Origin: an uncultured Clostridia bacterium
GTDB taxonomy: Bacteria > Bacillota > Clostridia > Christensenellales > UBA3700
DNA length: 64,000 bases
Direction of reading: 5' to 3'
Assembly (NCBI GenBank): GCA_947038565.1
Contig: CAMQWP010000003.1
Span: 85,183-149,182, forward strand
The notes beneath the pieces are model-generated. The model ran no database searches, had not been told where the DNA came from, and was given only the letters and a program-made list of their open reading frames with translations. How positions within the stretch are numbered: the stretch's first letter is position 1; each line of letters starts with the position of its first letter. Made by a program: the position numbers and the translations under genes. Of the stretch, positions 5,687 through 57,405 are shown in pieces.

Positions 5687-5868
5687 AAGTGGGAGGTCGG
5701 CTTTCGCCCACCTCCCACTATTCAGGTTTATTTCGCGTTCGCTGCCGCATTATCTCGCGCTGCGATAATGCTTGGTATATCAAGTGGGAGGTCGGCTCTC
5801 GCCCACCTCCCACTATTCAGGTTTTATTTCGCACTCGCTGCCGCATTATCTCGCGCTGCGATAATGCT
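5687..5868. repeat. tandem duplication (period 95 bp) of the ntpD 3' end plus its downstream hairpin
   Basis: 5687-5772 and 5782-5868 are near-identical direct copies separated by TGGTATATC. Each holds the last 14 codons plus stop of ntpD and an AGTGGGAGGT...ACCTCCCACT hairpin. Confidence 0.9.
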
Positions 5869-6480
5869 CTTAACCTTCATCAATCTAACAATATTACCAC
5901 GCTCGTTTTCGTCAAGTTTCATAGTGATGTCCTTTATTGCCTCAGTAGTCTGAGGTATCATAACATACTCTAACGCATTGACACGTCTACGATTTTTCTC
6001 TATCTCGTAAGCTAGCATGTTTGTAGTCTTCTCGACCTCAGCTAACTTTATAAGTTTCTCTGATAATTTTGATATAACAGCAATAGATGAGTCAAGCTCA
6101 CTCGTTACTGTCGCAAATGAATAAGGATATAAACTCTTAGAATCTGACTTTTTGATACCTATCTTAGGAACATTTACGCTCATTACATTATGCGTTGATA
6201 GCTCCAACTCCATAGATACTGCAGGCATGCTAAGAGCCTCCTCAATAGCAGAACTCTCACTAACAGCCTTAGCCAACATAAAGTTTGTTAATGCCTCACC
6301 TAGCTCCTTTTCCACTTCAAGTCGCACTTTCATATTCTCTTTTGCATATCCAATAAACTGTCTAATCATCTCATCAGACTTATCTTTAAGTAGTTTATGA
6401 CCACGCACAGCAGTCTTACGGCGGTCTTTTAACCGTCTAAGCTCCATTCGTGTTGGATTTACCTTTAACTTCGCAGCCAT
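5824..6480 (-). CDS. ntpD: V-type ATP synthase subunit D
   Basis: 218 aa. N-terminus MAAKLKVNPTRMELRRLK... is typical of V/A-ATPase D. It is the last gene of the ntp operon. Confidence 0.85.
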   Translation of the reverse strand: MAAKLKVNPTRMELRRLKDRRKTAVRGHKLLKDKSDEMIRQFIGYAKENMKVRLEVEKELGEALTNFMLAKAVSESSAIEEALSMPAVSMELELSTHNVMSVNVPKIGIKKSDSKSLYPYSFATVTSELDSSIAVISKLSEKLIKLAEVEKTTNMLAYEIEKNRRRVNALEYVMIPQTTEAIKDITMKLDENERGNIVRLMKVKSIIAARDNAAASAK

Positions 6481-26704: not shown

Positions 26705-26780
26705 TGGCGCCTTAAACAGGACTCGAACCTGTGACCCTGCGGTTAACAGCCGCATGCTCTACCAACTGAGCTATTAAGGC
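26705..26780 (-). tRNA. tRNA-Asn (anticodon GTT), CCA encoded
   Basis: Folded by hand into a 76-nt cloverleaf: acceptor GCCTTAA/TTAAGGC, D arm GCTC..GAGC, anticodon arm TGCGG-CTGTTAA-CCGCA, T arm ACAGG-TTCGAGT-CCTGT, 3' GCCA. Confidence 0.95.
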
Positions 26781-45739: not shown

Positions 45740-45825
45740 ACTTTGGACCTCCTTGAAAAAATATAAATAATCGGATGAGTCTATCCAGCAACCCCTTGAA
45801 GGATAAATCTCAATTTAACATGCTA

Positions 45826-46077
45826 CTACTTTAGTATACCGACTACCGCACAGGCAACATCAATCCCGCATAACTTGCCTAGTTTGTGTTTACCACAAAC
45901 AGTCTGGACAAGAATATCCTTTGTTGATACTGCGTCTGAAATAGCACGCATTACAAAGTCATCGCTATCACAAGATACGAGAACACACCGAACCGCATCA
46001 TTTGTGACGCCCGCCAAAACTTGTTTTAATCCAACAAGCCTTGATGAGTTTTTAATAAGAATAGTATAGTCTTGCAT
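45826..46077 (-). CDS. L7Ae-family ribosome-associated protein (YbxF/RplGB-like)
   Basis: 83 aa. Sits directly upstream of rpsL as in Bacillus ybxF. GTGAGGTG RBS. Confidence 0.7.
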   Translation of the reverse strand: MQDYTILIKNSSRLVGLKQVLAGVTNDAVRCVLVSCDSDDFVMRAISDAVSTKDILVQTVCGKHKLGKLCGIDVACAVVGILK

Positions 46078-46119
46078 AACACCTCACTAGATATTAAGCA
46101 TAATTATCCTATATAGGGT

Positions 46120-46148
46120 ATTCTAACAACTTTCAAGCAAATTGTCAA
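46120..46148 (-). promoter_or_regulatory. promoter of the L7Ae-rpsL-rpsG-fusA-tuf operon
   Basis: On the minus strand: TTGACA (46148-46143), 17-nt spacer, TAGAAT (46125-46120), about 40 nt upstream of the L7Ae ATG. Confidence 0.65.
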
Positions 46149-46239
46149 ACAAAATGCGACCATTTATTAAATAAAAGTCAAAAAGATTTCATTATCATAC
46201 CACTTTTATAGAATTACTCATATCATATTGTATTTTGTA

Positions 46240-46272
46240 GATAAAAACGGCTAAAAACAAGTAAATTTAGCC
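46240..46272 (-). terminator. orphan minus-strand intrinsic terminator
   Basis: On the minus strand: GGCTAAA (46272-46266), 10-nt loop, TTTAGCC (46255-46249), followed by GTTTTTATC. No annotated gene lies directly upstream of it. Confidence 0.5.
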
Positions 46273-46581
46273 TAAAAACAACTAAACTACCTTTCGCATT
46301 AAAAATGCAAAATAATAGTATATATATATAATAGTTATATTAATAACCATATATAATGCTAAAACGAATTGAATATTTAAATATTTATTTAAGACAGCAT
46401 AATGCAGAGTTTTTTAAACTTACAAAGCCGTTATACATGGTGATTTGATAAAGTATTAGAGAGTAATACTCTAAACCTACTGCTTAAACTTGGAATGCTT
46501 CAAACTCTCACTGATAAGTTATAATATTTGAAAACTTTATCACAATATTATATTTAAAATTATAAAGTTGAATTAATAGTG

Positions 46582-47101
46582 TAACGTTGATATTATCTCT
46601 TATCTCATACGCTGTCTATTTTCATATTGTATATGATTTCTTATTATCTCTATCTCTGTATTTTCTTACGCTCTGTATTCCCTTAATGTCTTATTATCTC
46701 TCATTCCCTGTATTCCATTACTCTCTTATTCTCATATGGTATTTAAAAAAGGATTAGAGTGTGTGCTTGGCAAGGAATAAATTGCAAACCCTAAAGGAGC
46801 GTACATATGGTACGTGACTGCGATGATGACAACACACTTAAAGCCCACAATATTGCCCTTGAAGATATAACGTTGATATTTTCTCTTATTCTCATACGCT
46901 GTCTACTTTCATATTGTATATGATTTCTTAATCCCTGTATTTTCTTACTCTCTTATTCTCATATGGTATTTAAAAAAAGGATTAGAGTGCGTGCTAGGCA
47001 AGGAATAAATTGCAAACCATAAAGGAGCGTACATATGGTACGTGACTGCGATGGTTTGTGATTTAATGACGACGCATAGTGCGTGCTATAATCCTTTTTT
47101 T
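46582..47101. repeat. two tandem copies (286 and ~233 bp) of a structured non-coding element
   Basis: TAACGTTGATATT… restarts at 46582 and 46868. The shared core …CTCTTATTCTCATATGGTATTTAAAAAAGGATTAGAGTG.GTGCT.GGCAAGGAATAAATTGCAAACC.TAAAGGAGCGTACATATGGTACGTGACTGCGATG is present at about 46725-46824 and 46958-47052. Confidence 0.9.
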
Positions 47102-48161
47102 AGTCTGTAATTTTAACACTAGCACTAGCATCAAGATCTATATCGGAACACAAACCGCCGTTTCTAACTAGTATCCTAGCTTCGCTTGCTATCATACCCG
47201 CGTTATCGGTACAAAGTATCAAAGGCGGATAGATTATATTAATACCGCAAGCACCGCACTTGTCGCTCATTGATTGCCTTAGAAGTTTATTAGACCCTAC
47301 GCCACCAGCTATTACGATAGTCTTGATATTGTGTTCTTTTGCTGCCCTCATGGTATTGTCTACCATCATGCCTATTGCACGAGCTTGAAAGCTACATGCT
47401 ACATCAGCGCGAGAGTACTCTTCGCCTTTTTGCTCGTGGTTATGAATGTAGTTAATAACAGCAGTTTTAATCCCGCTATAACTAAAGTTATAATGTTTCT
47501 CACTTTTAAAAGGAGTTGGCATATATACACTAGGCTCGCCCTCTAAAGCAAGTCGTTCTACCTCCACACCACCTGGATAAGGAAGACCTAAAGACCTCGC
47601 TACTTTATCGAACGCCTCACCACAAGCATCATCTACTGATGTGCCTATAATCTCCACGCTGTCAAAGTCATTTACTTTAGCAATAGCCGTATGCCCACCG
47701 CTAGCGATAAGGCAAAGATAAGGCGGGGTAAGTGTAGGACAAGCTATGTAATTTGCTGCTATATGCCCCTTTATGTGATTGACTGCGATAAGCGGTTTGC
47801 CTGTAGCATAAGCTAAACTTTTCGCAAAACTAACACCTATCAAAAGTGCACCTAAAAGCCCTGCACCATAAGTTACACCGATAACGTCAATCTCGTCCAT
47901 AGTCATGCCCGCATCAGCGAGTGACTGTGAAACGACATTTTCTATTGCCATAGTATGATTACGCGACGCGATCTCTGGCACAACGCCACCAAAACGTCTA
48001 TGGATCTCTATTTGAGATGCAATGACATTAGATAATAGCTCTTCGCCACGCATGATAGCACAAGCCGTTTCGTCACAAGACGACTCAATAGCAAGGACAA
48101 TTAAATCTTCCTTGCTACGTAGTTTTTCTAGTTTTATATTAGCTGTTTCAAAATATGACAT
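47100..48161 (-). CDS. tsaD: tRNA N6-adenosine threonylcarbamoyltransferase TsaD
   Basis: 353 aa; …ILAIESSCDETACAI… and …HIKGHI… motifs. Confidence 0.93.
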   Translation of the reverse strand: MSYFETANIKLEKLRSKEDLIVLAIESSCDETACAIMRGEELLSNVIASQIEIHRRFGGVVPEIASRNHTMAIENVVSQSLADAGMTMDEIDVIGVTYGAGLLGALLIGVSFAKSLAYATGKPLIAVNHIKGHIAANYIACPTLTPPYLCLIASGGHTAIAKVNDFDSVEIIGTSVDDACGEAFDKVARSLGLPYPGGVEVERLALEGEPSVYMPTPFKSEKHYNFSYSGIKTAVINYIHNHEQKGEEYSRADVACSFQARAIGMMVDNTMRAAKEHNIKTIVIAGGVGSNKLLRQSMSDKCGACGINIIYPPLILCTDNAGMIASEARILVRNGGLCSDIDLDASASVKITD

Positions 48162-48162
48162 A

Positions 48163-49269
48163 TTACGCCTTTATAAGGTAATCTTCGATAAATCTACCTA
48201 TATCGCCGTCCATAACAGCGGAGATATTACCAGTTTCACAGCCTGTCCTATGATCCTTTGCCATTGTATAAGGACAGAAAACATACGACCTGATCTGTGA
48301 ACCCCACTCGATTTTCTTAAGATTTCCCTTGATCTCATTATCTGAGTCAATTCTATCTTGCTCTTGCTTAGCAACAAGCTTACTCTTTAGCATTTTCATT
48401 GCTTCTTCACGATTCTTTATTTGGCTTCTCTCGTTCTGACACTGTACAACAATATTTGTTGCAAGATGTGTAATACGCACAGCCGAGTCAGTAGTATTAA
48501 CGTGCTGACCACCTGCACCACCACTCCTATAAGTATCTATCCTGATATCCTCAGAATTAATAACGATAACGCCATCATCTTCTAGCTCTGGCATTACCTC
48601 TAGTGAAGAAAACGATGTATGTCTACGGCTCTGAGAGTCAAAGGGTGATATTCTAACAAGTCTATGCACGCCCTTTTCCGCCTTCAAATACCCGTAAGCA
48701 TTATCACCAGATACTATAAAAGTAACAGTCTTTATTCCTGCTTCGTCGCCATCAATCATCTCTAAAATTTTCACGCTGAAACCAGTTCGTTCTGCATATC
48801 TAGTATACATACGATAAAGCATACTTGCCCAGTCTTGAGCCTCAGTACCGCCCGCACCAGCATGCAGGGTAAGGATAGCATTATTACCATCATATTGACC
48901 TTTTAGTAATGTTTCCAATCTTAAAGCTTCGATGTCTTTCTCTAATTTTTTTATATCGTTTATAATATTCTCTGTCTCCGACTCATCGCCCTCTTCAATA
49001 TACATTTCTATAAATGCCTCAATGTCCTCAAACCTATCCATAAGCCTTGACCAGCGATTGATTTTATTTTCTGCCTGTTTACACTCTTTATTGACAGACT
49101 GTGCTTTCTGCATATCTCCCCAAAACTCAGGCTCATTCTGTACAGCCTCCAGTTCTAGCTTCCTTGCCTTTAATGTTTCTAAACCTAAAGCATTAGCCAC
49201 TCCATTAAGAGCGTCCCTTACCTTGCTTATATCTAGTGCTACTTGTTCTAATAATACCATTTTTGCCAT
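48163..49269 (-). CDS. prfB: peptide chain release factor 2 (single uninterrupted ORF)
   Basis: 368 aa with SPF tripeptide (RISPFD) and GGQ (GGAGGQHVN). Classic secA-prfB synteny. Confidence 0.93.
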   Translation of the reverse strand: MAKMVLLEQVALDISKVRDALNGVANALGLETLKARKLELEAVQNEPEFWGDMQKAQSVNKECKQAENKINRWSRLMDRFEDIEAFIEMYIEEGDESETENIINDIKKLEKDIEALRLETLLKGQYDGNNAILTLHAGAGGTEAQDWASMLYRMYTRYAERTGFSVKILEMIDGDEAGIKTVTFIVSGDNAYGYLKAEKGVHRLVRISPFDSQSRRHTSFSSLEVMPELEDDGVIVINSEDIRIDTYRSGGAGGQHVNTTDSAVRITHLATNIVVQCQNERSQIKNREEAMKMLKSKLVAKQEQDRIDSDNEIKGNLKKIEWGSQIRSYVFCPYTMAKDHRTGCETGNISAVMDGDIGRFIEDYLIKA

Positions 49270-53610: not shown

Positions 53611-55824
53611 CTACTCGGCACATTGTCTACTCATCTCTTCGGCCAACATTTCCTTCAGTAGCGTGTATCTTTTAGCTGTAAAGTTATTACTAACCATGTG
53701 ACTCATATTTCCACTACTACCGACTATTACACTCATGCTCTTTGCACGCGTAACTGCCGTATACAGTAGGTTTCTCGTCATAAGTGTAGGCATTCCGCCC
53801 ATCAATACTATAACTACCACATCAAATTCGCAGCCTTGTGACTTATGCACAGTAATCGCATAAGCTAGCTTTATTTGCTCAAATATATCCCTCGAGTATG
53901 TCGCAACTCGCTCATCATCAAATTCGATAGTCAATGTATTGTCCACATGATTTACTTTTCTTATAAAACCGATATCACCGTTGAATACGCCCTGTCCCAC
54001 TTCTGAGCCTCTTAGCCAGTCAAGATCATAGTTATTTACAATATGGATTACCTTATCACCTTCTCTGAATATCCCGTCCATAAATCGCAATTCTGCCTTT
54101 GTTTTGCTCTCTGGATTGATAGCTCTTTGCAGTTCTTTATTCATATTATTGACACCGCTAAGTTGTTTTTTCATCGGACATAGTACTTGAATAGCCGACG
54201 GATTTATGTTTAGATAATTAGGTATTCTTTTAGCAACCATATTCACGACAGTGTCAAGCACTGCCGATTGATTATCTACTTCGCTGAATAAAAAATCACT
54301 GTCTTTATTGCGAATAATAGGCATATCGCCATTATTTATCCTATGTGCATTAGCTATAATAAGACTCTCTTGACCTTGCCTATAAATGTATGTTAGTTCA
54401 CTAATAGGTATATCTCCAAACCCTATAATATCACCTAATACATTACCAGCACCAACTGATGGTAACTGATCTTTATCGCCTACAAGTATAAGCCTACAGC
54501 CTCTATTTATAGCTGATAATAACGCATTAAATACGTACTCATCGCACATACTTACCTCGTCTACAATGATAACATCAGCTTGCAATTTCGTATCACTATT
54601 GAAAGTAAAGTTTCCTTTTCCGTTTTTAAAATCAAGATCTAATAGCCTATGAATAGTCTTTGCCTCTTCACCAGTCGACTCGGATAGTCTCTTTGATGCA
54701 CGACCTGTAGGTGCACATAAACTGACTTCCAAGTGTCTGCTTTTAAAAATAGATAAGATACATTTTATAATTGTTGTTTTACCTGTTCCGGGCCCACCAG
54801 TTATGATATTTACACCGTTATTTACAGCATTCTTGACAGCATTTCGCTGACCTTCGTGCATTACGATACCGCTGATCCTCTCGTATTCTGCGATATCACC
54901 CTCTATATCCATGTGTAAATCGGAGCAATTAAGTGATAAACTAACTAGTTTATTTGCAATATTTCGCTCTGTCAAATATACCTTACTAAACATCACTGCG
55001 GTGTCGATATCTCGCTCTATAACGGCAACAATACCAGTCACCTCAAGAGTAGTTATAGCCATCTCGCACAAATCAGTTACCACGTCATACTCTAAGCCAA
55101 GAAGGTCAAAAGCCTTATTTAAAAGCTCTTCCTTTGGCAAATAAGTGTGACCCTTTTCCGACGCGATATTTTTCAATAAATGTATAATGCCAGCTCGCAC
55201 TCTAAACTCTGAGTCTACAGCAATACCAAGCCCGCCCGCTATCTTGTCAGCAGTCGCAAACCCAACACCGTCTATATCTTCTATAAGCCTATAAGGATTA
55301 GAATTTATAGTATCAAGCGTTGCTCTGCCATATATTTTATATATTTTCAGTGCCATATTAAGTGTTATATCTAACTTTTGAAGTCCTAATATAGCATTTT
55401 GCATATCCTTTAAGCTGATAAATGTCTCATGAATATCCATTGCTTTTTTCGCACTAACACCCCTTATTGACTTTAGCTTTATAGGTTTTTTCTCTATAAT
55501 ATCGAAAGTATCCTCTCCGAACTCATCGACAATAGCGTCAGCCGTAACTTCGCCTATGCCCTTGAATAGTCCGCTAGATAGATACTTTGCTATGCTATCC
55601 AGTCCAGTCGGCAAGCATACTGTAGCTTTCTTAACATTAAATTGCTCTCCGAACTTTTGATTTACACTGTAATCGCCTTCAAGCTCTAAAGTTTCGCCTT
55701 CAGTGATTTGTGGCATAACGCCAACAGCAGTGACACTATGACTAGCATCACTTACTATTAGTACGGAATATCCATTTTCGGAATTCCTAAATATTACCTT
55801 TTCAACCGTTCCCGATATTAACAT
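53611..55824 (-). CDS. recD2: RecD2-type SF1B DNA helicase
   Basis: 737 aa; Walker A GGPGTGKTT, then …VDEVSM… and …YAITVHKSQG… motifs. Confidence 0.9.
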   Translation of the reverse strand: MLISGTVEKVIFRNSENGYSVLIVSDASHSVTAVGVMPQITEGETLELEGDYSVNQKFGEQFNVKKATVCLPTGLDSIAKYLSSGLFKGIGEVTADAIVDEFGEDTFDIIEKKPIKLKSIRGVSAKKAMDIHETFISLKDMQNAILGLQKLDITLNMALKIYKIYGRATLDTINSNPYRLIEDIDGVGFATADKIAGGLGIAVDSEFRVRAGIIHLLKNIASEKGHTYLPKEELLNKAFDLLGLEYDVVTDLCEMAITTLEVTGIVAVIERDIDTAVMFSKVYLTERNIANKLVSLSLNCSDLHMDIEGDIAEYERISGIVMHEGQRNAVKNAVNNGVNIITGGPGTGKTTIIKCILSIFKSRHLEVSLCAPTGRASKRLSESTGEEAKTIHRLLDLDFKNGKGNFTFNSDTKLQADVIIVDEVSMCDEYVFNALLSAINRGCRLILVGDKDQLPSVGAGNVLGDIIGFGDIPISELTYIYRQGQESLIIANAHRINNGDMPIIRNKDSDFLFSEVDNQSAVLDTVVNMVAKRIPNYLNINPSAIQVLCPMKKQLSGVNNMNKELQRAINPESKTKAELRFMDGIFREGDKVIHIVNNYDLDWLRGSEVGQGVFNGDIGFIRKVNHVDNTLTIEFDDERVATYSRDIFEQIKLAYAITVHKSQGCEFDVVVIVLMGGMPTLMTRNLLYTAVTRAKSMSVIVGSSGNMSHMVSNNFTAKRYTLLKEMLAEEMSRQCAE

Positions 55825-57008
55825 TAAAGAGTTTTTGCAAGTGCAGCTATTTCGTCTGCTTTATTAGTAGCTTCCCAGCTAAATCCATCACGACCAAAAT
55901 GACCGTAACTAGAAGTTTTCTCATATACTGGAGCTCTTAAGCATAAGTAATCAATAAGTGCTGACGGGCGTAGGTCAAATACACTATCTATTATGAACTG
56001 GATTTGTTCATTAGTATATTTGCTAGTACCGAAAGTATTTACCTGAACTGATACAGGCTTTGCTACGCCGATAGCGTAAGCAACGTCTAGCTGACACTTA
56101 TCAGCGATACCACTTGCTACGATATTTTTGCATACGTGTCTTGCCATATAAGCAGCTGATCTATCTACTTTTGTAGGATCTTTACCACTGAAAGCACCGC
56201 CACCATGAGGGCAGTATCCGCCGTAAGTATCTACGATTATCTTACGACCAGTAAGACCGCTGTCGCCTACAGGTCCACCCACTACGAACCTACCAGTAGG
56301 ATTAATAAAGAATTTAGTATTTTCATCAATAAGATCTTTAGGAATAACATTGCTTATAACATGCAACTTTATGTCATGTCTAATAGTTTCTAAATCCACA
56401 TCAGCACTATGCTGAGTAGATACTACAACCGCTTCTATACGGCTTGGTTTATCATCAATATACTCTACTGTTACCTGTGATTTTCCATCAGGACGAAGGT
56501 ATTTTAATGTTCCATTTTTTCTAACTTCAGTAAGTCTTGCTGATAATTTATGAGCTAGGTGAATAGGCATAGGCATAAGTGATTCAGTTTCGTTAGTCGC
56601 AAAACCGAACATCATTCCTTGATCACCAGCACCATTTTGGTCATAATCATCACCGCCATCTCTGACCTCGACACTATTGTCTACACCTAATGCGATATCA
56701 GGCGACTGCTTGTCGATACTTACCATAATGGCACAAGTATTGCCGTCAAAACCGACCTCGCTATTGTCATAACCGATGTCACAAACTGCCTTTCTTACTA
56801 TAGCTGGTATATCGACCACTGCAGTAGTAGTGATCTCTCCCATAACCATTACAAAACCAGTATTGCAACAAGTCTCACATGCAACACGAGCCATTTTATC
56901 CTGTGCGAATATAGCATCAAGAACACTGTCTGATACTTTATCACATACTTTGTCTGGGTGTCCTTCAGTAACACTCTCACTTGTAAATAATCTTCTGTTC
57001 ATTTTCAT
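55824..57008 (-). CDS. metK: S-adenosylmethionine synthetase
   Basis: 394 aa; …[13 protein letters not shown]…GDQG…GGGAFSGKD…. Confidence 0.97.
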
Positions 57009-57249: not shown

Positions 57250-57405
57250 TATATAATAAAAGACCACCATCTTTCGATAGCAGTCTTATATTTTATATAA
57301 TCACTCTATCTTCCAAGAAAAAATTCTTGCGGAATTTAGCACCTCACAAAGTCGGTTGCTGTACAATTAACGGGTCCGTTCCCTCCTGTATCTCACAATA
57401 GATAT
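57250..57405 (-). promoter_or_regulatory. SAM-I (S-box) riboswitch with terminator expression platform
   Basis: The minus-strand RNA reads …ATCTATTGTGAGATACAGGAGGGAACGGACCCGTTAATTGTACAGCAACCGACTTTGTGAGGTGCTAAATTCCGCAAGAATTTTTTCTTGGAAGATAGAG…, containing the GAGGGA/GGnCCC, GCAACC and GGTGCTAAATTCC blocks. It is followed by a 12-bp GAAA-capped hairpin (57260-57287) and TTTTATTAT. The CTATC in the terminator arm can pair with the P1 3' strand GATAG. Confidence 0.85.

Follow-up and report, generated by a model that had tools for sequence, protein, structure and literature searches.

Genes and repeat units at the locus

The element described here lies in a 1022-nt spacer of the window, by which the whole 64-kb stretch of analysed DNA is meant. 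All the genes around it are on the minus strand, which is also the leading strand, as indicated by GC skew: prfB (48163-49269) and tsaD (47100-48161) come before the spacer, while an 83-aa L7Ae-like gene (45826-46077), rpsL, rpsG and fusA lie beyond it. The tsaD product, recognized by Pfam TsaD, is 353 aa long, a length common to its homologues; the stop codon (TAA, 47102-47100) is, in gene-sense orientation, the start of the A-run of the hairpin described below. The operon formed by the L7Ae-like gene, rpsL, rpsG and fusA (S12 operon) is preceded on the minus strand by a near-consensus promoter (46148-46120: TTGACA, 17 nt, TG-TAGAAT; 11 of 12 matches), located outside the element and also present in the related species L028, L029 and L031. 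Just upstream of this promoter, at 46250-46283 on the minus strand, a terminator-like hairpin GGCTAAATTTACTTGTTTTTAGCC is followed by GTTTTTAT; it falls outside the species-specific insertion, and was missed by the terminator scanner because its loop is of 9-10 nt.

The insertion, which is non-coding, spans 46415-47099, from the tsaD stop codon to the point where homology to sister species resumes, as shown by blastn comparison with the L028, L029 and L031 spacers. With L028, homology resumes only at position 689 of the gene-sense spacer, at about 46414: about 690 nt are therefore specific to the species of the window. Two tandem repeat units, described here on the plus strand, are found at this position. 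Unit 1, distal to tsaD (46541-46845), features an opener, a long pyrimidine-rich stretch and a degenerate core, as defined by pairwise alignment and by repeat families D1-D5; unit 2, adjoining tsaD (46846-47102), features an opener, a short pyrimidine-rich stretch and an intact long hairpin.

Two tandem copies, starting from 46582 and 46868, had been reported in a preliminary description of the locus: they are confirmed by repeat families, unit alignment and coordinate check. The start positions are real, but the copies already resemble each other from about 40 nt before these, at CACAATATT (46541 and 46846). The shared parts are also as reported: the opener CATACGCTGTCTA[T/C]TTTCATATTGTATATGATTTCTTA is present in both copies, with one difference in 38 nt; the pyrimidine-rich stretch is longer in copy 1, the extra sequence amounting to 8 + 51 nt; the cores share 95% identity over 84 nt; the inner hairpin CGTAC-ATATG-GTACG is the same in both. 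Chance is excluded for the conserved blocks, as none of 100 shuffles gave even one match. No further copy of these blocks is present in the 64-kb window.

The opener blocks of unit 1 (46582-46643, plus strand) and unit 2 (46868-46930, plus strand) are 95-97% identical to each other. The former is also 96-98% identical between the haplotype of the window and the L007 haplotype, described below, while its surroundings diverge. On the plus strand, the unit 1 opener carries a promoter-like site, composed of TTGAAT (46568-46573), 17 nt and a TG-extended TATTAT (46591-46596), where the extended -10 reads TGATATTAT (46588-46596). A weaker site (TAGACA, 17 nt, TAATAT, 46618-46590) is found on the minus strand, and the opener also contains a 6-bp palindrome, TCATAT-TGT-ATATGA. 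The -10 of unit 2 is weaker (TATTTT), and no -35 is present at proper spacing. Promoter-like sites are not enriched relative to shuffled sequences (12 vs 8.5 +/- 2.9).

The pyrimidine-rich stretch of unit 1 (46644-46741, plus strand) is minisatellite-like, with periods of 17 and 25 and 68-70% matches, as reported by Tandem Repeats Finder; it is the part that diverges most between strains, where 50 nt may contain as many as 22 mismatches. Its shorter counterpart in unit 2, defined by the same program and by unit alignment, is at 46931-46968 on the plus strand. When read on the minus strand, these stretches are purine-rich. The motif which had been described there as present three times, GGAATACAG(G/A)G, occurs twice; a shorter form, AATACAG(G/A)G, is found at three places in copy 1 and at one in copy 2, four in all.

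The element had been described as non-coding, and this holds: no ORF is conserved between copies or strains, and Pfam finds no match in the ORFs of the element. The plus strand of the apical hairpin contains AAAGGAG, with an ATG 7 nt on, but the frames starting there differ, being MVRDCDGL* (8 codons) in copy 2, 38 codons in copy 1 and 17 in hairpin B of L007 (L007B). A 56-aa hydrophobic ORF at 46587-46757 has no ribosome-binding site, and is frameshifted both in copy 2 and in L007.

The long hairpin of unit 2 and its strand asymmetry

The core of unit 2 is predicted to fold into one long hairpin (46971-47102, plus strand), an imperfect palindrome of about 132 nt with 52 pairs, flanked by A7 on the 5' side (46972-46978) and by U7 on the 3' side (T7 at 47095-47101). 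A7GGATTA/TAATCCT7 forms the closing part of the stem, and the tsaD stop codon is complementary to the last 3 nt of the hairpin; the apical loop is AUAUG (47033-47037). The outer 29-nt arms of the core inverted repeat are 79% complementary, when only Watson-Crick pairs are considered; the 52 pairs include G.U. An 11-nt direct repeat, AGTGCGTGCTA, is found on both sides of the inner 82 nt of the core. The core helix of the preliminary description missed this main feature. The strings from which it was drawn are exactly in place (AGTGTGT at 46758-46764 and ACACACT at 46832-46838 in copy 1; GTGCGT at 46987-46992 and ACGCAT at 47072-47077 in copy 2), but in copy 2 the latter two do not pair with each other: instead, AGUGCGUGCUA (46986-46996) pairs with UAGUGCGUGCU (47077-47087). 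The 7-bp helix of copy 1 is the remainder of a much larger structure.

When folded as RNA, the long hairpin scores -60.3 kcal/mol on the plus strand (z -8.1) and -36.5 kcal/mol on the minus strand (z -6.4); with DNA parameters, the values are -31.3 and -22.8 kcal/mol, respectively. Unit 2 as a whole (46868-47105, plus strand) reaches -64.5 kcal/mol (z -4.4), contributed by the hairpin; in the centroid structure, hardly any pairs form in the pyrimidine-rich part. In its sequence the hairpin has the features of a bidirectional terminator, i.e. a stable stem-loop with a U-run after it and an A-run before it; it is invisible to a simple terminator scanner, because only loops of 3-8 nt and up to 20 pairs are allowed by the scanner. 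The other terminators of the window are typically short hairpins, with 8-12 G+C-rich pairs: the 52-bp hairpin is therefore exceptional.

Two tandem G.A/A.G modules are present within the stem, where 47003-47004 face 47068-47073 and 47025-47026 face 47044-47045. By inspection, the right arm, reading UGACGAC, permits a K-turn-like register, in which the stem runs from A47005-U47067 onward and is followed by a 3-nt GAC bulge (G47068-A47069-C47070) and then by G47071.A47004 and A47072.G47003. The minimum-free-energy fold uses a different register. An L7Ae-family gene is located about 900 nt from this K-turn-like module; sister species keep an L7Ae-like gene without the element.

In the degenerate core of unit 1 (46745-46838, plus strand) the left arm and the apical hairpin are retained, while the right arm has suffered a 12-nt deletion; the closing TAATCC-T7 is missing, and unrelated sequence is found where the closing arm belongs. 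Copy 1, analyzed as a 286-nt unit, is no more stable than shuffled sequences (z +1.1 on the plus and -0.5 on the minus strand). Contrary to what had been proposed, the fold is therefore not conserved between the copies, being intact in only one of the two copies of the window. The replacement of a T-A by a C-G pair in the closing helix, which had been regarded as compensatory, is derived from two sequences, and requires one particular register of the two in which pairing is possible; in the strain variant L007B the left arm has a T, while the right arm still has a G, resulting in a U.G pair.

Covariation adds negligible support. Six near-identical core versions, all from one species, are available for it, no homologue being found outside that species in the collections searched. 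The sole double compensatory change found is in a small hairpin at 46490-46503 (plus strand), UUGGAAUGCUUCAA, which reads UCGGAAGGCUUCGA in the L007 haplotype, with a U-A pair turned into C-G; this hairpin has a G.U on the plus strand, where the minus strand would have A.C. The non-repeated flank where it lies (46380-46640, used for the covariation check) features equal energies on both strands, and the one double change is equally valid on either. Support for the predicted fold of the long hairpin comes from thermodynamics and strand asymmetry. Of the conserved structured RNA initially proposed, what stands is a strongly structured non-coding element (z -8.1 for the copy 2 hairpin, plus strand), while conservation does not. 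Rfam gives no match in the region at gathering thresholds; when E is raised up to 10, three snoRNA matches appear, all at chance level (17-21 bits, against cut-offs of 39-50). A C/D-box-like UGAUGA in copy 1 was discarded, being a product of the 12-nt deletion with a chance-level score.

The oppositions that are not Watson-Crick pairs are unevenly distributed between the strands: in all 13 of them (7 G.U and 6 G.A) the G is on the plus strand. The six G.A oppositions correspond to two single ones and two tandem GA/AG, while C.A and C.U are absent. If the 13 are conservatively taken as eight events independent of each other, the calculated binomial p (two-sided) is about 0.008. Three tandem UG/GU motifs would fit CpG-to-TpG changes on the plus strand, in both arms. 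As the minus strand is both the leading and the coding one, the ordinary C-to-T bias predicts the opposite asymmetry. Similar differences are seen in the L007 hairpins A and B: plus and minus strand energies are -59 and -36 kcal/mol for window copy 2, -50 and -30 for L007A, -38 and -20 for L007B, and in all three there are 7-8 G.U pairs on the plus strand vs 1 on the minus. Strain substitutions in the left arm, changing G.U to A-U and C-G to U.G, preserve pairing on the plus strand. The non-Watson-Crick pattern indicates that the hairpin has evolved as a single-stranded molecule of the plus strand, either RNA or, possibly, ssDNA. On the basis of these predicted folds its orientation, left open in the preliminary description, can be called as plus strand; G.U/G.A asymmetry may be seen as an example of how orientation can be called without homologues.

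Distribution among strains and related species

Exact look-ups with the TsaD and L7Ae-like proteins of the window led to 14 metagenome contigs, all of the same species, one of them a scaffold broken by Ns at the element. Two haplotypes are found among them. Starting from tsaD, the haplotype of the window is composed of hairpin, tail, opener, truncated hairpin, tail and opener, and that of L007 of hairpin A, a 15-nt spacer, hairpin B, tail and opener: the element is tandemly duplicated in different ways in different strains. In all, six distinct core versions are known, each from this one species. Between haplotypes, the neighbouring genes differ by 0-2.5% at third codon positions, and the insertion by 6-10%, with far higher values in the pyrimidine-rich stretch; hairpin and opener are 96-98% identical. 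The intact hairpin beside tsaD is retained in every strain.

Related species were reached via TsaD homologues in a protein database, followed by contig look-ups. In L028 (TsaD 90% identical) the spacer (L028:5063-6309) is occupied by a frameshifted APH/choline-kinase-like gene, without the element. L029 (84%) and L031 (74%) feature short spacers, of 408 nt (L029:5063-5470) and 325 nt (L031:5063-5387), with neither the element nor other cargo. The spacer of L032 (75%; L032:4063-5207) contains a 181-aa ORF with a weak Phage_30_3 match, and that of L035 (72%; L035:4063-4734) is 672 nt long and lacks the element. The spacer between tsaD and the S12 operon (46078-47099 in the window) appears, across related species, as a site of variable cargo. 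For L032 and L035 no L7Ae-like gene was called, and a long leader precedes rpsL. Derivation of the element from the APH-like gene of L028, as a decayed remnant, was discarded, as no nucleotide or translated similarity was found.

Exact-pattern scans with three invariant blocks gave zero matches in genome contigs (GTDB species), JGI metagenome contigs and IMG/VR viral contigs, and blastn of the whole element found no match among plasmids and phages. When blastn and nhmmer were run on the window, on 36 fetched loci and on the spacers of six relatives, nothing beyond the known copies was recovered. Among GTDB species genomes, searched with TsaD, no close relative appeared, the best match being 49% identical; the organism is recorded only from ENA and Logan metagenome assemblies. 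Homologues at about 65% identity carry Clostridia/Christensenellales-like labels. As far as these searches reached, the element is restricted to one species: it is a local, lineage-specific sequence, not a conserved RNA family. The sRNA or cis-regulatory element, among the explanations first offered, would have to be a lineage-specific one.

Possible function and origin

The explanation that fits best, with somewhat less than even confidence, is that a fold-back insertion specific to this lineage serves as a terminator in both directions, and possibly closes a small plus-strand non-coding unit. The A7-hairpin-U7 arrangement, flush with the tsaD stop codon, would form a factor-independent terminator working both ways. 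In the gene-sense direction, it would halt transcripts of the tsaD operon ahead of the S12 operon promoter; in the plus direction, transcripts begun inside the insertion would be halted before entering tsaD as antisense. The duplicated unit may itself be a small plus-strand non-coding transcription unit, with the TG-extended -10 of the opener at its start, an unstructured, C/U-rich, fast-changing body, and the long terminator hairpin at its end; unit 1 would be a decayed copy of it. Terminator activity, plus-strand transcription and any regulatory target are all putative, being deduced from the sequence.

Several observations argue for this terminator reading. The hairpin, with its 52 bp, its z of -8.1 on the plus strand and its A7/U7 flanks overlapping the tsaD stop codon, is exceptional beside the short terminators of the window and belongs to a non-coding element; its strand asymmetry, opposite to the mutational bias, is shared by window copy 2, L007A and L007B. 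As for the transcription unit, the repeat unit starts at the promoter-like opener and finishes at hairpin and U7, the polarity is the same in L007 (opener, body, two hairpins), and opener and hairpin are conserved blocks, while the body is hypervariable. Other observations are less favourable. The promoter matches are weak (9/12) and not above those of shuffled sequences, and the base of the stem, with only 2 G-C pairs, is poor for a terminator. A T-run in gene-sense orientation follows all four of four core versions (T7, T6, T8, T6), while the one in plus orientation is present in the tsaD-proximal copies only: judged by sequence, such a pattern is no less in keeping with a terminator on the tsaD side than with a plus-strand one. 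The body evolves faster than the synonymous sites of the neighbouring genes, unlike a conserved seed, no homologue was found outside the species in the collections searched, and foreign DNA left behind as a neutral relic would have much the same appearance.

If the element does work as a two-way terminator, a lineage-specific fold-back insertion would insulate an essential tRNA-modification operon from the S12/EF-G ribosomal operon and, if the rest also holds, a non-coding transcription unit could be in the course of being born, duplicated and decaying within one species. Otherwise no wider reach is visible, as there is neither a family nor a conserved partner, and relatives manage without it.

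The element probably works most like a bidirectional intrinsic (Rho-independent) terminator, while its form is closest to the fold-back intergenic repeats of bacteria. As in bidirectional intrinsic terminators, an A7/U7-flanked hairpin, which may be read as a terminator on either strand, is located right after a stop codon and between two transcription units. In contrast to the intrinsic terminators of the window, with their 8-12 G+C-rich pairs, its stem has 52 pairs over about 132 nt; also unlike intrinsic terminators, it has an A/U-rich base, contains tandem G.U and G.A modules in its interior and has been duplicated along with the sequence upstream of it. Bacterial fold-back repeats and MITEs include pneumococcal BOX (formed by A-Bn-C modules), RUP, Bacillus cereus bcr1 and the Neisseria Correia repeats, which are multi-copy families with tens to hundreds of members per genome. 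The element resembles them in being a 100-150-nt fold-back, intergenic, near gene ends and lineage-restricted, as well as modular, with a variable number of short internal repeats, and in that it may be co-transcribed; it differs in being seen at one locus, without a partner transposase or a clear target-site duplication.

A serious rival to the terminator reading, although on the whole unlikely, is that of a neutral relic: foreign or scrambled DNA, received in a spacer that exchanges cargo, would have been reshaped around the palindrome by slippage and unequal crossing-over, with only incidental termination. The content of the spacer does differ from one relative to another, with the APH/choline-kinase-like gene in L028, the 181-aa ORF in L032 and none in L029 and L031; duplications arose independently in the two haplotypes; the region diverges by 6-10% and more, against 2.5% or less at neighbouring synonymous sites; copy 1 is decaying; another tandem duplication of hairpin-bearing DNA, of 96 nt, is present in the same window (5687-5868); and no homologue is found in any collection searched. 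On the other hand, the 13-to-0 G.U/G.A asymmetry is contrary to the expected mutational bias, hairpin and opener are 96-98% conserved between haplotypes despite the strongly diverged sequence between them, and the intact hairpin on the tsaD side is retained in every strain.

A MITE-like fold-back, already among the earlier candidates, is improbable. According to this explanation a non-autonomous transposon of about 130 bp would have inserted at the TA of the tsaD stop codon, and would later have been duplicated along with flanking DNA. Its fold-back shape fits, as the core consists of a single long inverted repeat, comparable in size to a MITE, with terminal inverted repeats, and can be read as TA + A6GGATTA...TAATCCT6 + TA; the inner 82 nt are flanked by the 11-nt direct repeat AGTGCGTGCTA, and the insertion is missing from sister species. 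Dispersed copies, however, do not appear: a second locus is absent from the 64-kb window and from about 20 kb of additional flanking sequence, as well as from the other fetched loci and from related species, and no match was obtained in the three public collections or in the plasmid and phage BLAST. No transposase is found nearby, the 'TA' duplication is indistinguishable from an extension of the palindrome, and a precise empty site is lacking because the sister species are without all 690 nt.

There is a rather small chance that the element is a regulatory RNA of the plus strand, i.e. a newly born gene, whose C/U-rich repeats would target purine-rich ribosome-binding sites by pairing, or act as a sponge for an RNA-binding protein, while the K-turn-like G.A modules of the hairpin would be bound by the L7Ae-like protein. 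C/U-rich sRNAs of Firmicutes include RsaE/RoxS, and UCCC motifs are featured by the staphylococcal Rsa RNAs and RNAIII. Like such sRNAs, the element starts with a promoter-like site, continues with an unstructured, pyrimidine-rich body in which UUCCC/UCCCU motifs occur, and closes with a hairpin followed by a U-run. Unlike them, it has no sequence or Rfam match, a hypervariable minisatellite takes the place of a conserved seed in its body, its terminator is about ten times the usual length, and its plus-strand transcript is putative.

Very unlikely is a hairpin working as ssDNA, i.e. the relic of a rolling-circle or HUH-type element, either a single-strand origin or an IS200/IS605-like subterminal hairpin, with TAACGTTGATATT in the opener as nick or target site. 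The asymmetry between strands does persist with DNA parameters (-31.3 vs -22.8 kcal/mol); AACGTTGATATTA in the opener would resemble CTTGATA, the phiX174 and pC194-type nick motif, as well as TTGAT, the target of ISDra2. Yet the resemblance to the nick motif is short, AT-rich and requires an indel, no Rep, TnpA or TnpB gene or remnant is found, and plasmid and phage searches gave no similarity.

Least credible of all is the type I toxin-antitoxin-like locus of the preliminary description, with a small toxic peptide whose ribosome-binding site would be sequestered in the hairpin: the AAAGGAG-ATG at the hairpin apex (plus strand) and the hydrophobic ORF at 46587-46757 could suit it, but the apical ORF varies in frame and length among copies and strains, the hydrophobic one is without a ribosome-binding site and broken in copy 2 and L007, and Pfam gives no match. 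Examples of such systems are par/Fst of pAD1 and the type I systems of Clostridioides difficile; like these, the element is compact and intergenic and has a hairpin resembling a bidirectional terminator and, as in par/Fst-type loci, a ribosome-binding site and start codon are buried in structure, whereas a conserved toxin ORF is absent. A few further identities were discarded by inspection: an integron attC (R''/R' boxes absent, and a clade belonging to the Firmicutes), a retron msr-msd (no reverse transcriptase), a dif/Xer site (arms matching poorly) and the template/variable repeats of a diversity-generating retroelement (copy differences not adenine-specific, no reverse transcriptase), as well as oriC or iterons (no switch in GC skew).

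Some minor features of the window were also recorded. At 5687-5868, between convergent ORFs, a sequence of 96 nt is tandemly duplicated (1.9 copies, 95% identical), overlapping with the minus-strand ORF 5824-6480 at its 3' end; each copy contains two G+C-rich palindromes, AGTGGGAGGTCGGCT(T/C)TCGCCCACCTCCCACT and GCATTATCTCGCGCTGCGATAATGC. This is the second case, in the window, of a duplicated hairpin-bearing sequence at a gene end. Before the ribosome-binding site of rpsL, at 45770-45812 on the minus strand, a leader motif reads GAG(A/T)(T/G)T(TA)TCCTTCAAGGG(G)TTGC(T/G)GGA(T/A)...ACTCATCCGATT; it has no Rfam match at gathering thresholds, and is conserved in all the relatives examined, L032, L034 and L035 included, whether the L7Ae-like gene is present or not. 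It may be an r-protein leader of the S12 operon. Between rpoC and the S12 operon, the window features metK, recD2, comF, secA, prfB and tsaD; a tRNA is located at 26708-26780, and a SAM-I riboswitch (57303-57404, minus strand) precedes the metK-like ORF 55824-57008, as expected.
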